Of a stretch of DNA of 10,239 nt, positions 1,505 through 10,103 are shown in pieces. The notes below the pieces were generated by a model, which saw only the letters and a list, made by a program, of their open reading frames with translations, made no database searches and had not been told where the DNA came from. Every line of letters begins with the position of its first letter. The stretch's first letter is position 1. Both the position numbers and the translations under genes were made by a program. Location: assembly GCA_015485945.1 (NCBI GenBank), contig WFSM01000096.1:1-10239 (forward strand). The letters are read 5' to 3'. Source of the DNA: Candidatus Bipolaricaulota bacterium (GTDB lineage: Bacteria; Bipolaricaulota; Bipolaricaulia; UBA7950; UBA9294).

Positions 1505-3424
1505 CTACTTGCTCCCCGGCAGAGTAAGAACGGTTCCATCACCGATTCCGTTGGCCGCGATGAATCCCTGTGGAAGTTCGAGCGCGTATTGGAACGCTCC
1601 CTTCGCCGTGTACAACTGCTTTTTTTTGGCGTTAGCAGCATACACCTTCATCGTGGTGCCGCCGGCGAACTTGCCGGACTTGTCGAAGAAAACGATATCG
1701 ATCGGGAAGTGCACCGTTTCCATCGTGAACTGAACTTTAACTTCCTGCGTAAACGAGAACAGAATCGCCGGGAACACGGTGCGCAGGGACGGTGGGAACC
1801 CGCGAAATCCGGTGAACCGGGAGTACGGCTTGTCTGCAGCCAACGCGGTGACCGAGATTTTCTTCCCTGCTTTGGTCGTAAGCGTGAGTGTCTCTTTCGT
1901 AAGCGCACTCAGCACCCCAAGGTCGCCCGCGGCGCCGGCGGTGGTCATAATGGGAGCGGTGTCCTGCGCAGTGGACGGATAGACGGTCATCGGAGTGTCA
2001 CCGATACCGTCCTTGTTGGTATCCTTGCCGGTATACGTCGCCCAGTAATTTCCCACTCCGGACTGTGTCCACGTGTTGCCGTTACCATAGTCCTCCACTA
2101 CCGCCTTGCCGGTATCCAAAAAATAGTCGCCGTATATCATGTTTGCTTCGGAATCCTTGTTCAGGTAAAGATCTTTTTGGTTTTCGGAGAACACGTTGTC
2201 GCTGATAACATTCCCCACCACTTTTACCTTTCCGTACGTTTCGGGGAACAGAATCCCCTGGCTCTGTTGGGCGATCAGGTTGTGGGAAATGGTGTTGTAA
2301 CTGCCCGTCACCTCGACACCGTACGCACCAGCAACAATGGTGTTAAACGACACGGTGTTGTCCGCGCCGGTCTTGGAGATGGAGATACCCGTTTCCGCTT
2401 CGGCGATCGAATTCTGCGTGATTACGTTGCCGGTCGCCTGCCCGATTGCTATCCCGTATTTCGTATTCTTTTGGTAGATGATGTTCTGTGTGATCTTATT
2501 GTCCGTTGATCCGGCGGATAGCTGGATCCCGGTGGGATTGGCAGCGATCGCGTTGTTGGAAATCACGTTGTTGTCCGATGCGGCAACAAGTGCACCGAAA
2601 TTATTGGCCATTAACTGATTGTCGGTCACGGTGTTGTTCTTGGACAGCCACAGAAATAAGCCGGCAAAGCGGTTGTTCACCAAAATGTTATTGGTAACCG
2701 TGTTATTGTCGGATCGATACAGGGTAAGTCCGTGCTCGGTGTACACCGGATTGGTGCGCCGGGCTTCATTGTTGCGAATGATGGAGTTGGTCACAAACGC
2801 AAGCTGGATCCCGCCTCCGTTGACAATTGTGTTATTTTCGATCGTCACTCCGTCGCTGGCGACGACGTACAGGCACGTGCCTTTGATTCCACTCACCGTA
2901 CCGCCATGTTGTCCGTAGATGTAATGGATCGGCGCGTTATTAAGTATGTTGGTGGTGTCGATCGCCAGGTTGTACTCCGCCGGTGACTCGCCGATGACCC
3001 GCAGCCCCATTCCCTGAACGTCAATGACATTCATTTTCATGGTGATGGCGGTGGATGACGATATGTCAATCCCATTCAGCGAGTTGGAAATAGTGCACCC
3101 CTCGATTGTTGCCCCAGACACAAACCCGAGGTGGATCGCCGCTCCAAGAGGATCCATCGCGCCGCGGATTATGAGTCCCCGCAACACGAAATGCGCGGTC
3201 GTGTTCTGAATGTTGATCGCGTACGACGCCGTCTGGGGAACATCAATCTCCCAGCCAGCGATGATGTACGGATCAGTCGCGGTCCCGTTTCCTCCGATCA
3301 CTCCGTTCGCCGCGGTGAAGTCCGAATTACCAAGAATGGTTATCGGGGCATGCGTTCCAGCAACCCCGACAACGGCCATGAGCGCCAATCCGAGCAAAAA
3401 AACACCTATCATCCTAATGTGCAT
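1505..3424 (-). CDS. secreted right-handed parallel beta-helix (NosD/PbH1-repeat) protein with C-terminal DUF192 domain
   Basis: The track ORF runs 1505..3988, but its first 188 codons overlap the divergent 3663..4667 gene and lack an RBS. The internal ATG at 3424 is preceded by GAAGGAGAG 6-8 nt upstream. It opens a signal peptide, MHIRMIGVFLLGLALMAVVGVAGTHA. Repeated beta-helix rungs follow (NNxIxxNxxGIxL, ITQNxI...). A NosD-type motif is present: GNYWATYTGKDTNKDGIGDTPMTVYP. The C-terminal ~100 aa match DUF192/COG1430 (VHFPIDIVFFDKSGKF...GAFQYALELPQGFIAANGIGDG). Confidence 0.75.
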   Translation of the reverse strand: MHIRMIGVFLLGLALMAVVGVAGTHAPITILGNSDFTAANGVIGGNGTATDPYIIAGWEIDVPQTASYAINIQNTTAHFVLRGLIIRGAMDPLGAAIHLGFVSGATIEGCTISNSLNGIDISSSTAITMKMNVIDVQGMGLRVIGESPAEYNLAIDTTNILNNAPIHYIYGQHGGTVSGIKGTCLYVVASDGVTIENNTIVNGGGIQLAFVTNSIIRNNEARRTNPVYTEHGLTLYRSDNNTVTNNILVNNRFAGLFLWLSKNNTVTDNQLMANNFGALVAASDNNVISNNAIAANPTGIQLSAGSTDNKITQNIIYQKNTKYGIAIGQATGNVITQNSIAEAETGISISKTGADNTVSFNTIVAGAYGVEVTGSYNTISHNLIAQQSQGILFPETYGKVKVVGNVISDNVFSENQKDLYLNKDSEANMIYGDYFLDTGKAVVEDYGNGNTWTQSGVGNYWATYTGKDTNKDGIGDTPMTVYPSTAQDTAPIMTTAGAAGDLGVLSALTKETLTLTTKAGKKISVTALAADKPYSRFTGFRGFPPSLRTVFPAILFSFTQEVKVQFTMETVHFPIDIVFFDKSGKFAGGTTMKVYAANAKKKQLYTAKGAFQYALELPQGFIAANGIGDGTVLTLPGSK

Positions 3425-3458
3425 GTCAATCTCTCCTTCGCGTATAACCCAATTTTCT

Positions 3459-3487
3459 ATTATAGCCCGGCTCAACAGCACGAGCAA
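3459..3487 (-). promoter_or_regulatory. putative promoter of the beta-helix/HAD/SPFH gene run (consensus -10 TATAAT, weak -35 TTGCTC)
   Basis: The minus strand reads TTGCTC-17 nt-TATAAT. The -10 is the reverse complement of plus-strand attata at 3459..3464; the -35 corresponds to plus 3482..3487. This would leave a ~27 nt leader carrying the AAGGAG RBS. The call rests on motif only. Confidence 0.3.
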
Positions 3488-3649
3488 TACAACTCTACTC
3501 AAACGCAATAAAGATTCGATGGTGGAAAAATGGAGGAATGGTGAACGCCCGCATGACCAATTTCCCGTGATCCCGTAGTACCACCGCCAACGTGTCCGAC
3601 GTCCGATGAAAACGGGCGCGAAATGACCGGCAGCGGCCGCGAACGCCGC

Positions 3650-3655
3650 TATACT
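3650..3655 (+). promoter_or_regulatory. possible -10 element (TATACT) 7 nt upstream of the ATG at 3663, suggesting a leaderless transcript
   Basis: TATACT at 3650..3655 is followed by ggatggc and then ATG. No convincing SD or -35 is present, so this is weak. Confidence 0.2.
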
Positions 3656-3662
3656 GGATGGC

Positions 3663-4667
3663 ATGAAACTGTCGGGTGTAATGCGCTTCCTCAGTGTCTG
3701 TTTGGTCATCATCACCCTATTTGGAGTCGGGTCCAACCGCGGGTCAACCTCTGCCTCGTCCGCATTTCCCCTCTCCCCGCACAATCGGGTGGGAGTGTAC
3801 CTGACGTCGTACTCCCTGACTAAACCGGGAACGCTTGCCAGCGTGCTTGCCGCCGCCCAGGCGGGCATGATCAACGCCGTGGTGATAAACGTAAAAAATA
3901 TGCACGGCGAAATTACGTACGCGAGCAACGTCCCATTGGCACGGAAGATCGGGGCAGTTGCAACCAGAATTGACCCCCGCACCATCATCCCTAAACTCCA
4001 CGCCGCCGGGATCTACGTGATCGCCCGACAGGTCCTGTTCTACGATCCCAAACTGGCTGCCTATCTCGGGATTTCCGGAGCGTGGGTATCGCCGGAGAGC
4101 CCGCAAGTAGTTGCCTACAACCTCGCGATCGCGAATGAGACAGCGTCACTTGGGTTTGACGAGATCCAATTCGACTACCTGCGGTTCCCGGATGGCGAGG
4201 GCCTTGGAACCGGATACGGCCCGCGCTATGCCGCAATCGATGCGTTTCTCGATCGCGCGCGTCGTCTCCTCGCCGGCCGTGTTTTCATCTCCGCTGATCT
4301 GTTCGGTCGGGTGATGTGGAACTGGAACAAAAAGTTAATCGACCCGATCGGCCAATCGCTGGAACAAATCGGCGCCCGGGTTGACTTTCTTTCTCCGATG
4401 CTTTACCCATCCCACTATCACGAGCAGTACTACAAGAGCGACCCGTACCGGGTGGTGCACGATGCGCTTGTCACTGGTCGCGCCCGGGTAACCACGCCAA
4501 TTCGTCCGTTCCTGCAGGCGTTTGATCTTGATATTCCCCGCGGAATGTCGCTGGAGGATTACATCCGCGCTGAGATCAAGGCGGTGCAAGATGTCGGAGC
4601 GGATGGATATCTGTTTTGGAACCCAAGTTCCGACTACACCGCCCTGTATCGCGCCCTGTCCCGGTAG
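3663..4667 (+). CDS. secreted DUF4015-family putative glycoside-hydrolase-like (TIM-barrel) protein
   Basis: The 334 aa ORF has an N-terminal signal/anchor, MKLSGVMRFLSVCLVIITLFGVGS. GMINAVVINVKNMHGEITY and DEIQFDYLRFPDGEG resemble conserved blocks of Pfam DUF4015 (lNavViDvKdd.G; fDeiqfDYiRFP), recalled from memory. The stop is TAG at 4665..4667. Confidence 0.6.
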   Translation: MKLSGVMRFLSVCLVIITLFGVGSNRGSTSASSAFPLSPHNRVGVYLTSYSLTKPGTLASVLAAAQAGMINAVVINVKNMHGEITYASNVPLARKIGAVATRIDPRTIIPKLHAAGIYVIARQVLFYDPKLAAYLGISGAWVSPESPQVVAYNLAIANETASLGFDEIQFDYLRFPDGEGLGTGYGPRYAAIDAFLDRARRLLAGRVFISADLFGRVMWNWNKKLIDPIGQSLEQIGARVDFLSPMLYPSHYHEQYYKSDPYRVVHDALVTGRARVTTPIRPFLQAFDLDIPRGMSLEDYIRAEIKAVQDVGADGYLFWNPSSDYTALYRALSR

Positions 4668-4713: not shown

Positions 4714-5775
4714 ATGATGCAGCCCATCGAGGAATGGATCCGCACCAACCTAGACGTGGAGTGGACCAACTCGGCAACACTCCGCTACGCCGCGATGGAC
4801 CACCAGGCACCGCCCGACCTCGGGGGGGTATACCGCGATTACACTCCGGAGCGGGTCGATGACTGGATTGACCTAACGCTCATCATGGCGTACCTGGCCG
4901 CGCTGGGAACGACCGGGCGGATTCTCGACGTCGGCACCGGTGATGGATGGCCAGCGCTCCCGCTCGCTCCGTACGTGGATCGAGTAGTCGGGATCGATGC
5001 CACCTCCAAGCGGATCAATACGGCGGAGGCAAACCGGGCCCGGCGCGGGCACGAAAATGTGGAGTTCCGGCACGCTGCCTGCGAGCAAATCCCGTTTCCG
5101 ACTCACAGCTTCGACGGCGCCGTCGCCGGGACAGCGATTGAACAAGCGGTGGATCCGGGCGCGTGTTTGCGCGAGATTTATCGCGTGCTGAAGCGGGGCG
5201 GTGCCCTCGTTGCCACGGTCGAACACCTGGCGGGAGAACTCGGCGAACGCTCCGAGCAACAAGTGGAGTTGTTTCAGCGCGGCGACCGCTTCTGGTACCG
5301 CTACGCCGTAAAGGAGCCCGCCCCGCCGCGGGAGGTGGAGTACCTGGTTGAGATCAACCCCGATCCCCAATTGGAAGCAACCGCCGCCGCATTTCCGCAC
5401 CGGTCCGGATTTACCCGCCGGAAAGGAGAACCGGGAATGCAGCCCCTCACCTCCGCAATCGCTGCCGCATGTGGGCTCCCGTTATTGGAGCAGGTGCGTG
5501 ACAAAATCGTGCGGACACGCGGGTTCGAGCTTCACCACTATACCGTAGCCTCCCTGCGCCAAGCCCTCACTGCTGCTGGATTCTCGCGGGTACAAATCCG
5601 CGGGCCGATCACCCGGATCGCGAGTCGGTGTTTCATCGGACTGCATGAATCCGGCACTCTCCCCCACCTGCGCCCGTGGTTCGCCCACATCTGCCGCGGG
5701 CTCGCGGAAGCGTGGGCAGAGGTCCCAGCGGAGGAAAGTTCGCTCCTATTTATACGCGCGAGAAAGGAGACGTGA
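4714..5775 (+). CDS. class I SAM-dependent methyltransferase with ~150 aa C-terminal extension of unknown function
   Basis: AAGGAGG lies immediately upstream of the tandem ATGATG at 4714/4717. Motif I is ILDVGTGDGWPALPLA; post I is VVGIDAT; motif III is VLKRGGALV. The C-terminal region (residues ~200-353) is unrecognised. The TGA stop at 5773..5775 overlaps the next gene's ATG. Confidence 0.85.
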   Translation: MMQPIEEWIRTNLDVEWTNSATLRYAAMDHQAPPDLGGVYRDYTPERVDDWIDLTLIMAYLAALGTTGRILDVGTGDGWPALPLAPYVDRVVGIDATSKRINTAEANRARRGHENVEFRHAACEQIPFPTHSFDGAVAGTAIEQAVDPGACLREIYRVLKRGGALVATVEHLAGELGERSEQQVELFQRGDRFWYRYAVKEPAPPREVEYLVEINPDPQLEATAAAFPHRSGFTRRKGEPGMQPLTSAIAAACGLPLLEQVRDKIVRTRGFELHHYTVASLRQALTAAGFSRVQIRGPITRIASRCFIGLHESGTLPHLRPWFAHICRGLAEAWAEVPAEESSLLFIRARKET

Positions 5776-6725
5776 TGATCGACGTGCGAGAAAGCGCGCA
5801 CTATGTGATGAACCATGCTGCTTCCGTTGAAATCAACGCAAACGCGGTCCCGGGATTGGCAGCGGAGCTTCTTCCAATTCCAGTTCCTGACTGGGACTGC
5901 GTTTATCACTACTGCGATGGGACGGTACGCACCGCGGCCTACCTATTTGTGGTCGATTCCCTCAACTTCTGCTTCTTCCCGGTACCTCGTTGGCAGGTGG
6001 TTGTAAATGACGAACAGCTAAGCGGGTACTTCGCACTCACCGCGGTCCTGAAACAGGCACTCCTCGCCGGCCGGCCGATCGACGATTTTCGGTACTTGGC
6101 CACCGTTCCCGCCGCGGAGGTGAAAGAAATCCTCCACGGCGAAGTCAGGATCGGGGAGATACCGCTATTCGCGGACCGGGTCGCGATCCTGCACGAGATC
6201 GGAACGCAGATGACCGCGCGCTACGACGGCAGACCGGACAATCTCATTGCCGCCGCCGATAACAGTGCACTTCAGCTCGTCGAGCTGATAGTGGAGGCGT
6301 TTCCGTCGTTCCGCGACGAAGCGGATTACAACGGGAAACGGGTCGGCTTCTACAAGCGGGCGCAGATTCTCGCCGGCGACCTGTACGCGTGTTTTTCCGG
6401 GCGATCGTACGGTGCGTTTCACGACATCGCTCGCTTAACCGCGTTTGCCGACTACAAACTCCCCCAGCTCCTGCGCGCCGCCGGGGTATTGCACTACTCC
6501 GATACGTTGGCAGCGACAGTCGACAACGAGGAATGGATCGCTGCCGGCTCCCGGGAAGAGATCGAGATCCGCGCCGCCACGATCGTCGCGATCGAATTAG
6601 TACGGGACGCCCTTGCCCGCCGTGGCAGGCGCCTCCTTTCCCTCGAGCTCGATTGGCTGCTGTGGCATGCATCCCAACACAGGAAGATGGCGCCCCACCA
6701 CCGTACCCGCACCACGTTCTACTGA
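5775..6725 (+). CDS. DUF2419 / Qng1-like queuosine salvage protein (queuosine-5'-phosphate/queuosine N-glycosylase homolog)
   Basis: The track ORF starts at 5676. I prefer the ATG at 5775: AAAGGAGA lies 5 nt upstream and it overlaps the methyltransferase stop as TGATG. The 316 aa product aligns block by block with eukaryotic C9orf64/Qng1 as recalled from memory: FVVDSLNFCFF vs FVTDTLNFSFW; GKRVGFYKRAQILAGDL vs GKRVSFYKRAQILVADT; LTAFADYKLPQLL vs ITMFADYRLPQVL; EEIEIRAATIVAIELVRD vs QEVEIRGCSLWCVELIRD. Confidence 0.8.
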   Translation: MIDVRESAHYVMNHAASVEINANAVPGLAAELLPIPVPDWDCVYHYCDGTVRTAAYLFVVDSLNFCFFPVPRWQVVVNDEQLSGYFALTAVLKQALLAGRPIDDFRYLATVPAAEVKEILHGEVRIGEIPLFADRVAILHEIGTQMTARYDGRPDNLIAAADNSALQLVELIVEAFPSFRDEADYNGKRVGFYKRAQILAGDLYACFSGRSYGAFHDIARLTAFADYKLPQLLRAAGVLHYSDTLAATVDNEEWIAAGSREEIEIRAATIVAIELVRDALARRGRRLLSLELDWLLWHASQHRKMAPHHRTRTTFY

Positions 6726-7963
6726 TGTACGCGCTGATTCATCAGGACACGCATTCCCGCGCTCGCACCGGAGTAATCCACACCGCGCACGGGGACGTCG
6801 CCACTCCGGCGTTTGTGGCGGTGGCAACGCGGGCAAGCGTCAAAGCGGTCGAACCGGATGCGATCCGTGAAATCGGCGTTCAAATGGTGATTTCCAACTC
6901 TTATCACCTTCACCTGCGACCGGGCGAGGACACGATCGCCCGCCTCGGGGGGCTGCACGGGTTCTCAGGGTGGAACGGGCCGACGATGACTGATTCCGGC
7001 GGGTTTCAGGTGTTCAGCCTCGGCGCGGGCAAGGAACACGGGGTGGGCAAGGTAGCGTCGATATTCCCGGGTGAGGACCGCCCTCGCCAACCGGGCAACT
7101 ACAAACAGGGAAAATCACTCGTAAAACTGACCGAGGACGGAGTGTGGTTCCGGTCGGTGATCGACGGCTCACCGCGGTTCTTTTCCCCGGAGAGCGTGAT
7201 CGAACTCGAGCGCAACCTCGGAGCGGATATCATCCTCGTGTTGGACGAGTGCACGTCACCGCTGCACGACTACGCCTACACCAAGAACGCGATGGAGCGC
7301 ACCCACCGCTGGGCAGCGCGGGCGGTAGCCGCATTCGCCCGCCTTCATGATGAGGTTTGGTTTCCCAACCCGGAGCAACATCTATTCGGAATCGTTCAGG
7401 GCGGAGCGTACGAGGATCTACGGACCGAGAGCGCACGTACGATCGCCACAATGGGGTTCGCCGGGTTCGCGATCGGAGGATCGCTGGGAAAATCCAAGTC
7501 CGACATGTACCACGTCCTTGACTGGACGATCCCTATATTGCCGGCGGACAGGCCGCGCCACCTGCTTGGGATCGGTGAGATTGAAGACATCTTCGCTGCG
7601 GTGCGTCGCGGTGTGGATACGTTCGACTGTGCCGCCCCGACGCGAATCGCCCGTAATGGAACGGTGTTCGTCAAGGAAGCACCGCGCCACCGCATCAACC
7701 TGCGCAACGCGCGGTTCCGCGATGACTTCCGCCCGATTGACCCGACGTGTGACTGCTTCACGTGTCGCCACCACTCCCGCGCCTACCTGCGCCACCTGTG
7801 CCGTGCTGGTGAGCTGTCATTCTACCGGCTAACGACCATTCACAACCTGCGGTTTCTCACCCGACTGATGGCTGAGATCAGAGATGCGATCGGTGCCGAC
7901 CGATTCGACGCACTCGCCGCCGAGTGGGGTGTCGTCACCGGTTACCCTGACTCGACGGACTGA
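6725..7963 (+). CDS. tgt: queuine/tRNA-guanine transglycosylase
   Basis: The ATG at 6725 overlaps the preceding TGA as TGATG. The N-terminus, MYALIHQDTHSRARTGVIHTAHGDVATPAFVAVAT, parallels E. coli Tgt. Catalytic-Asp and zinc motifs are present: TDSGGFQVFSL, LDEC, LLGIGEIED and the zinc site CDCFTCRHH...H. The track's N-terminal extension from 6389 is Arg-rich and overlaps the Qng1-like gene, so I rejected it. Confidence 0.9.
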   Translation: MYALIHQDTHSRARTGVIHTAHGDVATPAFVAVATRASVKAVEPDAIREIGVQMVISNSYHLHLRPGEDTIARLGGLHGFSGWNGPTMTDSGGFQVFSLGAGKEHGVGKVASIFPGEDRPRQPGNYKQGKSLVKLTEDGVWFRSVIDGSPRFFSPESVIELERNLGADIILVLDECTSPLHDYAYTKNAMERTHRWAARAVAAFARLHDEVWFPNPEQHLFGIVQGGAYEDLRTESARTIATMGFAGFAIGGSLGKSKSDMYHVLDWTIPILPADRPRHLLGIGEIEDIFAAVRRGVDTFDCAAPTRIARNGTVFVKEAPRHRINLRNARFRDDFRPIDPTCDCFTCRHHSRAYLRHLCRAGELSFYRLTTIHNLRFLTRLMAEIRDAIGADRFDALAAEWGVVTGYPDSTD

Positions 7964-8472
7964 GAATGATCGAATCGACACCCCGGGCACAAATCTCCGT
8001 CCCCGAAAAACACGACTCCGCACCGCACGCATCGCTTCGCACCCGCGGCTAGCAGTGCTGCCTCCCGCTGGCGTAGAGTGACGTACAGCCGGGTGAACGA
8101 CCGTTGCAGTTGGGGGTCAGGCACACCCGCGAACATGTGTGCTGCATCCGCCGGCAACTGGGGATCATGCGGAGGGTGCGGTATCCGGCGTGGGAGTGGT
8201 ATCCGCCCGGGGATAAACCGGATTTCACGCACGACGGCCGCTCCGACTGCCTGATTGAGACGGGCGATGTACTGTTCCCGAAGTAAGAATAGCTCCTGGC
8301 GGGCGGCAGCTGAATTCACAGCGACTGTAAGGATTCCATCAGTGAATCGGATTGGCTTAGTAATGCGGGCAATTTGGGGGCCACCGATTTCTGGCCATAA
8401 CAGTAATGGTTGTTGGGCACTAAACTTTTCCCCCAGATTGTAGCGGCGTAGTACTTCAGTTACCCAGTTCAT
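7942..8472 (-). CDS. dciA: DUF721/DciA-like protein (putative replicative helicase operator) with C-terminal CxxC...CxxC zinc-ribbon tail
   Basis: The 176 aa ORF carries the DUF721 pattern W-x-E-IGG-x-IA...DG-ILTVAV-NSAAARQEL...RLNQAVG...IRFIPG, recalled from memory. A Pro-rich linker follows, then CVRCGVVFFGDGDLCPGC. The gene lies directly beside dnaA/oriC and overlaps the tgt 3' end convergently by 22 nt. No clear SD is present, and the N-terminal coding region has lower GC. Confidence 0.65.
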   Translation of the reverse strand: MNWVTEVLRRYNLGEKFSAQQPLLLWPEIGGPQIARITKPIRFTDGILTVAVNSAAARQELFLLREQYIARLNQAVGAAVVREIRFIPGRIPLPRRIPHPPHDPQLPADAAHMFAGVPDPQLQRSFTRLYVTLRQREAALLAAGAKRCVRCGVVFFGDGDLCPGCRFDHSQSVESG

Positions 8473-8762
8473 TTAAAGGACCTGTAGGAGTTGTAGTGGG
8501 GACATTAGTCTGGGGAAAAGGGCACGATTGTCGATCCTGTCCAGTGTAACCGTTGGGGAAAACCCTGTGGATAACCTGTTCATAACGGTGGAAAACAGTG
8601 GATATGCGCTGGGGAGAACTTTGCCCGTAGTTGTTCACTGTACTTTTCCACAACGAACAGCGCTTTTTCACCACTTTTCCGCCCCTTTTCCCCAGGGTTT
8701 TCCACAGGGAGCCGATAGTCACTCGCTTGCTGTGTTGCCGTCTATACACGTGTTTCCGAAGT
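8473..8762. other. candidate chromosomal replication origin (oriC): DnaA-box cluster in the dnaA-dciA intergenic spacer
   Basis: A perfect DnaA box, TGTGGATAA, lies at 8566..8574. One-mismatch boxes TTTTCCACA lie at 8644..8652 and 8698..8706. Two-mismatch boxes lie at 8587..8595 (GGTGGAAAA) and 8597..8605 (AGTGGATAT). The spacer sits immediately downstream of dnaA. Confidence 0.6.
8511..8694. repeat. inverted repeat TGGGGAAAAGGG(c/g) at 8511..8523 and 8682..8694 flanking the DnaA-box cluster; a third partial copy TGGGGAAAACCC lies at 8554..8565
   Basis: The reverse complement of 8682..8694 (ccccttttcccca) is tggggaaaagggg. Plus 8511..8523 reads tggggaaaagggc. The two agree at 12 of 13 positions. 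Confidence 0.5.
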
Positions 8763-10103
8763 TCAACGAACGGTAAACCGGGCCCGCAGGCTCTCTTCAA
8801 TCTCTTTTATCTCCGCATGAAGGAGCGGCATCTCTTCGATGAGGGACTTAATCTTCATGTAGGAATGCATGATTGTGGTGTGATCTCGGTTTCCGAACTG
8901 GCGTCCGATAGCGGGAAACGACTGGTTGGTGAGCTCGCGTGTCAGGTAGATCGCGATATGACGCGCTTGGGAGATCTCTTTTTTGCGACTTGCCCCTTCG
9001 ATGTCGCGCCGTTTCAAGTGGTACCTGGTTGCAACTTCGTCCTTGATGTGCTCCGCGCTCAACCGCTCGCGCTTGCCCTCCTCGGGGAGCATGTCCTCCA
9101 GGGTGGTGGGGGTAAGGTTCTGGCCCTCCAGCTCGGCATGAGCGATCGCCCGGACGAGTGCTCCCTCCAATGCACGGACGTTGGATGAAATGCGGCTGGC
9201 GATCAGTTCGAGGATATCGTCATTTACAATCAATCCGCGGTTTTGCGCCTTTTCGCGCAGAATCGCGACCCTGGTCTCGAAATCCGGCGGTTGGATATCG
9301 GCCACTAACCCCCAGCGAAATCGAGATACCAACCGTTCCTGCAGCCCGGATAGCTCTTCGGGTGGGCGATCGCTCGACAGCACGATCTGCTTTTCGCGGC
9401 CGTATAGCTCGTTGAACGTATGGAACAATTCCTCCTGTGTTGCTTCCTTGCCTTGCAGAAAATGCACGTCGTCGATGAGAAGAAGATCGATGCGGCGGTA
9501 CTTCTCGCGAAACGCGGACGTGGTATTTCCCCGGATGGCGTTGATCAGCTCGATGGCGAACCGCTCCGATGTTGTGTACACGATTGTCATTGGTTGTTCG
9601 GATTGGAGAATAAAGTTGCCGATTGCCTGGAGAAGGTGGGTTTTACCCAACCCAACGCTTCCGTAGATGAACAGGGGGTTATACGCCTTGCCCGGCGCTT
9701 CGGCCACCGCCATTGACGCTGCGTACGCGAGGTGATTGTTTTTCCCGCGCACGAATTGGTCGAACGTGTAATCGGGATTGAGGGGGAGAGTGTTTCCGTG
9801 CACAGCTATCCGTGTTGGCGAGATTGAGGGGGGAGAAAGATCATCATGCTTTGTCTCGGCGACCGCGAAATTAATCGCAAGCTGATCGCCGAAGTGAGCT
9901 TGGCTGAGCCGATCGATGATGTTCCGATAGCGCCGCTCGATCCCGCCTTTGATGAAACTGTCCGGAACTGCGACGACGAGTTGGTCGTCCGTCATTTGCA
10001 GCGGCCGTGTCTCACCAAACCACGTTTCAAAACTGGCGCGCGGGAGTTCCTTTCGCAATCCAGAAAGGATACTTTCCCAGACGGCCATGGGATTTTCATT
10101 CAT
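8763..10103 (-). CDS. dnaA: chromosomal replication initiator protein DnaA
   Basis: The 446 aa ORF opens with a DnaA-like N-terminus (VWESILSGLRKELPRASFETWFGETRP). It has an AAA+ Walker A (GSVGLGKTHLLQAIGN) and Walker B (LLLIDDVHFL). The C-terminal DnaA-box-binding signature RDHTTIMHSYMKIKSL is present. GAGGGG lies 6 nt upstream of the ATG at 10103. Confidence 0.95.
   Translation of the reverse strand: MNENPMAVWESILSGLRKELPRASFETWFGETRPLQMTDDQLVVAVPDSFIKGGIERRYRNIIDRLSQAHFGDQLAINFAVAETKHDDLSPPSISPTRIAVHGNTLPLNPDYTFDQFVRGKNNHLAYAASMAVAEAPGKAYNPLFIYGSVGLGKTHLLQAIGNFILQSEQPMTIVYTTSERFAIELINAIRGNTTSAFREKYRRIDLLLIDDVHFLQGKEATQEELFHTFNELYGREKQIVLSSDRPPEELSGLQERLVSRFRWGLVADIQPPDFETRVAILREKAQNRGLIVNDDILELIASRISSNVRALEGALVRAIAHAELEGQNLTPTTLEDMLPEEGKRERLSAEHIKDEVATRYHLKRRDIEGASRKKEISQARHIAIYLTRELTNQSFPAIGRQFGNRDHTTIMHSYMKIKSLIEEMPLLHAEIKEIEESLRARFTVR

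Follow-up and report, generated by a model that had tools for sequence, protein, structure and literature searches.

We asked which base is inserted into tRNA by a tRNA-guanine(34) transglycosylase (Tgt) whose gene directly follows qng1, the gene for a queuosine-5'-phosphate/queuosine N-glycosylase, in a 10.2-kb stretch of DNA (the window, on which all positions are counted) whose homologues are named Candidatus Bipolaricaulota. A first-pass annotation had described the Tgt pocket as a hybrid, in which the bacterial Cys158 (Z. mobilis numbering) is kept and Val233 is replaced by Gly or deleted, much as in human QTRT1, and had predicted from this pocket and the adjacent Qng1 a Tgt that inserts queuine. 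From its gene order and protein sequences, the window probably encodes a direct queuine-salvage operon, with Qng1 followed by Tgt. On this route, Qng1 would hydrolyse queuosine-5'-monophosphate (or queuosine), taken from the environment or derived from tRNA turnover, to release free queuine, and Tgt would then put queuine directly in the place of G34 in tRNA-Asp, -Asn, -His and -Tyr, a sequence of steps on which QueA, QueG and QueH would not be needed.

Judged by its residues, the window Tgt is a bona fide bacterial Tgt and is predicted to be catalytically intact. It scored 468 bits against TIGR00430, the NCBI equivalog model for bacterial Tgt (cut-off 306.75), and matched PF01702 with an E-value of 1e-135. 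An AlphaFold2 model (mean predicted local distance difference test score, pLDDT, 85.2; predicted template-modelling score 0.87) had the TIM-barrel fold of TGTs, and Foldseek superposed it on Z. mobilis TGT (1ozm/1pud) with a template-modelling score of 0.94 and a root-mean-square deviation of 1.6 A. Canonical, preQ1-inserting Tgt, as in Z. mobilis and E. coli, was its best match in both sequence (E-value 1e-100) and fold. The gene and the elements of the protein on which the argument turns are as follows, with equivalents in Z. mobilis numbering.

6725 to 7963, plus strand: tgt, tRNA-guanine(34) transglycosylase of 412 aa, short-loop (Chlamydia-type) class (TIGR00430, PF01702)
6992 to 6994, plus strand: D90, equivalent of Asp102, from the alignment of TDSGGFQ to 1ozm; invariant
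7022 to 7117, plus strand: class-linked insertion of about 32 residues (residues 100-131); the HMMER match splits at 100/131
7244 to 7252, plus strand: D174-E175-C176, equivalent to Asp156-Glu157-Cys158, with the Cys kept (alignment to 1ozm)
7397 to 7399, plus strand: Q225, equivalent of the base-recognition residue Gln203, by alignment; invariant
7475 to 7501, plus strand: pocket loop G251-G252-S-L-G-K-S-K-S259, from the translation and the alignments
7559 to 7576, plus strand: H279-L-L-G-I-G284, in place of Y258-L-M260-G-V-G; invariant in the clade
7625 to 7627, plus strand: D301, equivalent of the nucleophile Asp280 (TFDC against MFDC); invariant
7748 to 7843, plus strand: zinc site C342, C344, C347 and H373, equivalent to Cys318, Cys320, Cys323 and His349, by alignment; invariant columns

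Kept from the canonical enzymes are therefore Asp102, Asp156, Cys158, Gln203, the base-binding Gly229/230 (here G251-G252), Asp280 and the zinc ligands. The window Tgt departs from them jointly in several respects: its pocket loop has one residue fewer, Lys or Arg fills the Glu235 column, His and Leu replace Tyr258 and Met260, and about 32 residues are inserted; in the window, moreover, the neighbouring gene is qng1 and not queA. The insertion follows the GGFQVFSL strand and has no counterpart in the enzymes of Z. mobilis, E. coli and human; the core, GAGKEHGVGKVASIFP, hardly varies within the clade, and the model gave the insertion a pLDDT below 50. With this much of a Tgt in place, a different substrate or target, such as preQ0, or DNA as for DpdA, is barely credible. 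The match to DpdA was a weak 31 bits against a cut-off of 200, whereas the Tgt equivalog was matched and the architecture of a tRNA-Tgt, zinc subdomain included, was intact.

The part of the enzyme that raised the question is the pocket loop. On translation from the ATG at 6725, DEC lies at 7244 to 7252 and GGSLGKSKS at 7475 to 7501, exactly as first annotated, and the loop does fall one residue short of that of bacterial enzymes, as the first pass had it. A 92-residue fragment of the window Tgt aligned to 93 residues in every solved TGT/QTRT1 chain compared (Z. mobilis, E. coli 10fa/b/c, T. maritima 2ash, mouse and human), so that the short loop was found in no solved structure of TGT or QTRT1, and among 150 representatives canonical enzymes have 9 residues between GG and Met261 where the window's class has 8. 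The loop GGSLGKSKS of the window Tgt is accordingly one residue shorter than GGLAVGEGQ of Z. mobilis and GGLSGGESK of human. The AlphaFold2 model predicts a strand at residues 247-250, a loop at 251-257 and a helix at 258-271. Conservation was scored on the window Tgt and its 120 closest homologues (69-93% identity; n = 121). G251, G252, S253, L254 and G255 were invariant in all 121, as was DECTSP, and RHLLGIG was essentially invariant; position 256 was R or K in 119 of the 121, and S257 and K258 were each retained in 120, whereas S259 was Ser in just 8. The short loop is thus a clade signature and not a chance event.

The loop also marks a larger group. In a MAFFT alignment of 157 rows (the 150 representatives from clustering at 50%, the window protein and six close homologues), 154 sequences could be classified by the strand motif, 80 as Y-x-M and 74 as H-x-L. 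Nearly all of the Y-x-M class had a 9-residue loop of the form [LV][SA][VI]GE and no insertion. The H-x-L class had 8-residue loops in 43 cases and 6-residue loops in 15, with a few of other lengths, and an insertion of at least 25 residues was found in 52 of its 74 representatives against 7 of the 80 canonical ones. Over all 157 rows, 8-residue loops were paired with HxL (40), HxA (2) or HxP (1) and never with YxM, rows of which carried 9- or 10-residue loops only; the remaining 8-residue row, P0200 (GxR), had no recognisable strand motif at 278-285. Among the residues lost by this class, Glu235 backs the peptide switch (flip) of Leu231/Ala232 in Z. mobilis Tgt (PMC3660597). When a neighbour-joining tree was built without the motif columns, 58 of 68 short-loop (H-class) sequences formed one pure clade, which takes in the window protein and the Tgt of C. 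trachomatis, with human QTRT1 on the canonical side. Near-strict monophyly of the class was recovered in 1 of 50 bootstrap replicates, and monophyly is for this reason not claimed. By these sequence features, what we describe is a distinct class of Tgt, with an 8-residue GGSLG[K/R] loop, an HLLGIG strand and, in most members, additional residues inserted behind the strand GGFQVFSL.

Does this loop make the pocket resemble that of QTRT1? Four methods, namely phmmer against the PDB, MAFFT (157 sequences), hhalign (the window clade against a canonical profile) and BLASTP (the window Tgt against human QTRT1), all placed a single gap directly after GG, which gives the following correspondence.

S253: Z. 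mobilis column Ala/Ser232, human QTRT1 Ser231
L254: Z. mobilis column Val233, human QTRT1 Gly232
G255: Z. mobilis column Gly234, human QTRT1 Gly233
K256: Z. mobilis column Glu235, human QTRT1 Glu234

The Val233 column was therefore occupied by Leu254, neither Gly nor a deletion, in every one of the four; this match is alignment-based, and sequence alone cannot place a deletion inside a six-residue loop. A bulky residue in the column had been named beforehand as the outcome that would speak against the first-pass claim, which at the level of this residue fails. The published motif notation is written the other way, with the Gly after 'SL' taken as the substitute for Val233 (GG[LS][AS]G; 'GGSLG' in Anaplasma; PMC11570991). 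The pattern GG[LS][AS]G, given there for queuine-salvaging TGTs, literally fits neither GGSLGK of C. trachomatis P0523 nor the window Tgt, and Fig. S1 of the same paper writes GGSLG for Anaplasma.

The human reference used for the comparison was sound, the fragment being identical to chain A of 6H45 and holding both LDDVV and GFAIGGLSGGESKS. On the surface GFAIGG...SKS does resemble GFAIGGLSGGESKS, and an origin of the pocket from QTRT1, for instance if it had been transferred along with Qng1, and with Gly in the Val233 position, would account for the likeness; a later gap would indeed put Gly255 opposite Val233, as PMC11570991 writes the motif. The final Ser, however, is not conserved, and the SKS match is partly luck because S259 is Ser in only 8 of 121 homologues. 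The window Tgt also scored better against the bacterial than against the human enzyme (341 bits against Z. mobilis Tgt, 255 against QTRT1; 48% against 40% identity over shared columns), and the motif-free tree set QTRT1 apart on the canonical side. QTRT1 has its own Val161, a 9-residue GGLSGGE loop with Gly232/Gly233, Glu234 and RYLMGVG, none of which is found in the window Tgt, where Cys stands at the 158 site, Lys or Arg in the Glu235 column, and His and Leu at the sites of Tyr258 and Met260. Derivation from QTRT1 is thus very unlikely, and the description of the pocket as QTRT1-like has to be given up. QTRT1 acts as a heterodimer with QTRT2 (PMC6165067), and no second TGT-like gene was found in the 10.2 kb of the window. 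What the two enzymes have in common is the presumed queuine substrate, a Qng1 partner in the same organism and the local GFAIGG/SK similarity, and from sequence this looks like convergence on the same substrate, not shared ancestry.

A closer parallel for the loop came from Chlamydia. The Tgt of C. trachomatis (P0523 = TGT_CHLTA) reads GSAIGGSLGKN and RPRHLLGIG and aligned with the window Tgt at 39% full-length identity with no gap in the loop; the AIGGSLGK loop and the RHLLGIG strand are identical between the two. AIGGS[LV]G[KR] was also found in other Chlamydia Tgts, including those of C. abortus, C. pneumoniae, C. pecorum, C. muridarum and C. suis, and their strand is xHLLGIG. At x most of them have Val, Ile or Leu, and members of the C. 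trachomatis cluster have Arg. The bacterial-type TGT (bTGT) of C. trachomatis is reported to insert queuine in place of preQ1 (Yuan 2019, as cited in PMC11570991 and PMC11130926). Because a queuine-inserting enzyme bears it, the loop flagged in the first pass marks a queuine-type class of bacterial enzymes that is already known, and for the same reason a bulky residue at 233 is not a diagnostic test of specificity. The two further share the insertion after GGFQ(V/I)FSL, all catalytic Asp residues and the zinc site, and each is a single bacterial-type protein. In the C. trachomatis enzyme Leu replaces Cys158 (DEL, where the window Tgt has DEC), His replaces Gln203 (GVIHGG, where the window Tgt has GIVQGG) and Ser replaces Cys281, and the insertion is shorter; Chlamydia also obtains queuine from the host through the QPTR transporter, not from a linked Qng1. 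Since two pocket residues differ, identity of the loop alone is no proof of equal specificity. A modelled GGSLG pocket in the Tgt of Anaplasma phagocytophilum lies 4.0 A from queuine and was read as compatible with it (PMC11570991, Fig. S1); this enzyme has the same GGSLG motif as the window Tgt, is known in this respect from a model only, and comes from an obligate intracellular pathogen with a tgt-only genome that lacks Qng1. In their stored text, the supplementary tables of that paper hold no Bipolaricaulota, Sphaerobacter or GGSLG entries.

The second line of evidence is the gene context. The two genes that precede tgt are these.

4714 to 5775, plus strand: class I S-adenosylmethionine-dependent methyltransferase, 353 aa (PF08241, E-value 3e-21)
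5775 to 6725, plus strand: qng1, queuosine-5'-phosphate/queuosine N-glycosylase, 316 aa (PF10343, formerly DUF2419, E-value 9e-87)

The ATG of tgt at 6725 overlaps the TGA of qng1 by 1 nt, and the start of qng1 overlaps the stop of the methyltransferase gene by the same distance, tgt being the last of the three. Methyltransferase, qng1 and tgt thus form an overlapping operon in which the methyltransferase is translationally coupled. A look-up of the exact window Tgt sequence gave no match, and the context was read from a 93%-identical homologue instead; in this relative an overlapping arrangement of the same three genes was likewise called, and their order is that of loci L001 and L002. The window Qng1 is 100% identical to P0271. 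It matched the Qng1 of S. thermophilus (7uk3) with an E-value of 7.6e-77 and retains the equivalents of K199 (in the helix-hairpin-helix motif), D231, Y232, F75, I203, D298, W302 and the C-terminal Tyr, hence every active-site residue named for that enzyme, those for binding base and ribose included, so that by sequence it looks functional. S. thermophilus Qng1 frees queuine from queuosine-5'-monophosphate (Hung 2023, PMC9881137), and its C-terminal Tyr is functionally important. Sphaerobacter thermophilus, a free-living bacterium that has Qng1, is reported to be without de novo queuosine genes and to salvage queuine (Zallot 2014; Hung 2023, PMC9881137). In a Sphaerobacter metagenome-assembled genome (MAG), qng1 and tgt are not adjacent, whereas in the window they overlap within one operon.

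The pairing of the two genes extends well beyond this locus. A profile scan over one genome per GTDB species yielded at least 586 bacterial Qng1 loci, of which the best 80 were analysed. A Tgt gene lay directly downstream of Qng1 on the same strand in 50 of the 80, in Bipolaricaulota, Desulfobacterales/Thermodesulfobacteriota, Anaerolineae, Dehalococcoidia and others. All 50 of these Tgts had DEC together with GGS[LV]G[KRS] (GGALGK in one), and none had the canonical GGL[AS]VGE; where the strand was present it read RHLLG[IV]G in 46 of 47 and RPLLGI in one, three sequences being cut off before it. In about 11 of the 30 loci that lack a downstream Tgt, the sequence ends less than 1.3 kb after Qng1, and at L062:8915-10525 (CP070660.1, a complete MAG chromosome) the Tgt region 3' of Qng1 is partly masked (X), which left its motif unscored. 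Besides Qng1 and Tgt, no recurrent family emerged across the 80 loci, and no shared transporter, kinase or radical-SAM gene. Motif scans over 960 kb of sequence flanking Qng1 and Tgt (up to 10 kb each) turned up no QueA, QueF or QueH, and the window has no riboswitch, for preQ1 or otherwise. Qng1 and queuine-type bTGT are recognised signature genes of bacterial salvage (PMC11130926). The prediction of a queuine-inserting Tgt beside Qng1 thus agrees with the loop and strand identity to Chlamydia and with the 50 linked loci, even though the hybrid, QTRT1-like pocket from which it had been drawn does not stand. We infer that queuine is the base inserted by the window Tgt and that the geometry of its pocket would admit the cyclopentenediol of queuine.

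Several points weigh against this reading. The retention of the Cys158 equivalent, correctly noted in the first pass, sets the window Tgt apart from Chlamydia: C176 and Q225 are invariant in the window's clade, where the Chlamydia enzymes have Leu and His, and it is the loop and the gene context that suggest queuine use by Tgts that keep Cys158 and Gln203. Cys158 favours binding of preQ1, the affinity for which is cut by C158V, and V233G together with C158V gave Z. mobilis Tgt no queuine activity (Biela 2013, PMC3660597). Pocket residues are consequently weak predictors of specificity, and the window Tgt, because it retains Cys158 and Gln203, may still accept preQ1. Bulky Leu254 stands in the Val233 column. 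Gene content can mispredict specificity too, as the Bartonella Tgt shows for a genome with tgt only (PMC11570991). The 80 loci are the nearest relatives of the window Qng1 and belong to one lineage, so they are not phylogenetically independent, and relatives at about 70% identity bear the same type of Tgt with no adjacent Qng1. Absence of the de novo pathway from the source genome, finally, is presumed from the flanks, the part that could be read.

Much of this would be expected if the Tgt were of the preQ1 type or used both bases, with preQ1 as a good and possibly preferred substrate and the short loop as a trace of lineage history. The invariant Cys176 and Gln225 fit such an enzyme, since proven queuine enzymes have Leu and His (Chlamydia) or, at the Cys site, Val (human), and V161C increases the affinity of the human enzyme for preQ1 as C158V lowers it in the bacterial one (PMC3660597). 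So do Leu254 in the Val233 column, the lesson of Bartonella (PMC11570991), and the size and diversity of the short-loop class (74 of the 154 classifiable sequences), some members of which have no Qng1 beside them. It is nevertheless rather unlikely in our judgement: in all 50 linked loci this type of Tgt is tied to Qng1, whose only known product is queuine, its loop agrees in every residue with that of the queuine-inserting Chlamydia enzyme, no flank holds a QueA-like gene and the window has no preQ1 riboswitch. We raise tentatively, as a possible but not a probable refinement, that the Qng1-linked Tgts are a sub-type that keeps Cys158 and Gln203 and works as naturally dual-specific homodimers for preQ1 and queuine, which would recognise the 7-substituent without a peptide switch backed by Glu235.

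Retention of Cys158 would also suit an indirect route, in which queuine from Qng1 is converted to preQ1 by a distant QueL-like lyase, inserted as such by Tgt, and matured by QueA with QueG or QueH. A route of this kind is present in Clostridioides difficile (QueK/QueL; PMC11570991). That route, however, pairs QueK and not Qng1 with a canonical bTGT (PMC11130926), and no conserved radical-SAM or QueA gene lay near Qng1-Tgt in the 80 loci, which makes indirect salvage here highly improbable. Direct salvage, with queuine as the product of Qng1 and the substrate of Tgt, remains the explanation we favour.

The rest of the window holds the following features.

Minus strand, in the window: a band-7 gene, a HAD phosphatase gene and a NosD/beta-helix gene
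3663 to 4667, plus strand: DUF4015
7942 to 8472, minus strand: DciA
8763 to 10103, minus strand: dnaA
10163 to 10238, minus strand: tRNA-Phe

A role for the methyltransferase in the salvage module is unproven. Its gene lies 5' of Qng1 in 7 closely related loci only, and the protein had no specific NCBIfam match above cut-off. In other Bipolaricaulota (L003 and L005, about 70% identity) tgt comes directly after DUF4015; the window's sublineage has the methyltransferase gene and qng1 between the two, as if inserted. Three further Bipolaricaulota loci (L024, L035 and L043) have Qng1 at another place with no adjacent tgt. A conserved 317-aa protein without a Pfam match is encoded 3' of tgt in L003 (11295-12248, minus strand) and L005 (11321-12274, minus strand); it equals Qng1 in length yet is unrelated to it. 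One Desulfobacterales MAG (L081:1500-8390) has genes for QueC (PF06508), a DUF6884 protein, a SIR2_2+AAA_28 protein and a nucleoside 2-deoxyribosyltransferase-like protein ahead of qng1-tgt. This QueC was the single QueC match in the flanks and belongs to an unusual 7-deazaguanine or defence-like cluster, unrelated-looking in its genes, seen at that one locus.

Downstream, the convergent DciA gene shares 22 nt (7942-7963) with the 3' end of tgt, an overlap also called in L001, the 93%-identical relative. DciA and dnaA are separated by a 290-bp spacer (8473-8762) that contains three DnaA-box-like sites, an exact TTATCCACA at 8566 and one-mismatch sites at 8644 and 8698; in the whole window 5 such sites were observed against 1.3 expected. 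Together with dnaA and tRNA-Phe, these sites look like a replication-origin region. Upstream, the open reading frame for the NosD/beta-helix + DUF192 protein (1505-3988, minus strand) encodes 827 aa from its first ATG and runs into the start region of DUF4015; the orthologue in relatives is called at 639 aa, and the true start is probably internal. The nearest MAGs, L002 = L007 (CAZILO010000037.1), are labelled 'uncultured Thermotogae bacterium', whereas the homologous proteins of the clade and its other MAGs carry the names Candidatus Bipolaricaulota or Acetothermia, so the label is probably a taxonomic inconsistency.

Much of this picture is already published: queuine-type bacterial TGTs are known, the GGSLG motif has been modelled for Anaplasma, S. 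thermophilus Qng1 has been characterised, and bTGT and Qng1 have been named as salvage signature genes in neighbourhood analyses. Because its loop marks a known class and qng1 is co-transcribed with tgt, the window is best taken as an ordinary further example of a known queuine-salvage route. What it adds is modest, namely a further member in an uncultured lineage with a strict pairing of Qng1 and short-loop Tgt, the retention of Cys158 and Gln203 in the Qng1-linked sub-type, and the class-wide loss of Glu235, Tyr258 and Met260. If direct salvage is correct, a Bipolaricaulota-like lineage and many Desulfobacterota and Chloroflexota would recycle queuosine in two steps, as eukaryotes do, and not make it, which would support queuosine as a shared microbial micronutrient. 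The short-loop class would then be a natural sequence solution for the use of queuine by a bacterial-type TGT, reached through loop deletion, loss of Glu235, Tyr258His and Met260Leu, where point mutants of the Z. mobilis enzyme did not arrive at queuine use (PMC3660597). Should the Qng1-linked sub-type be dual-specific, it would explain naturally why V233G/C158V alone did not convert Z. mobilis Tgt, and the spread of the qng1-tgt cassette through Bipolaricaulota, Desulfobacterota and Chloroflexota would point to widespread cross-feeding on queuosine among uncultured anaerobes.

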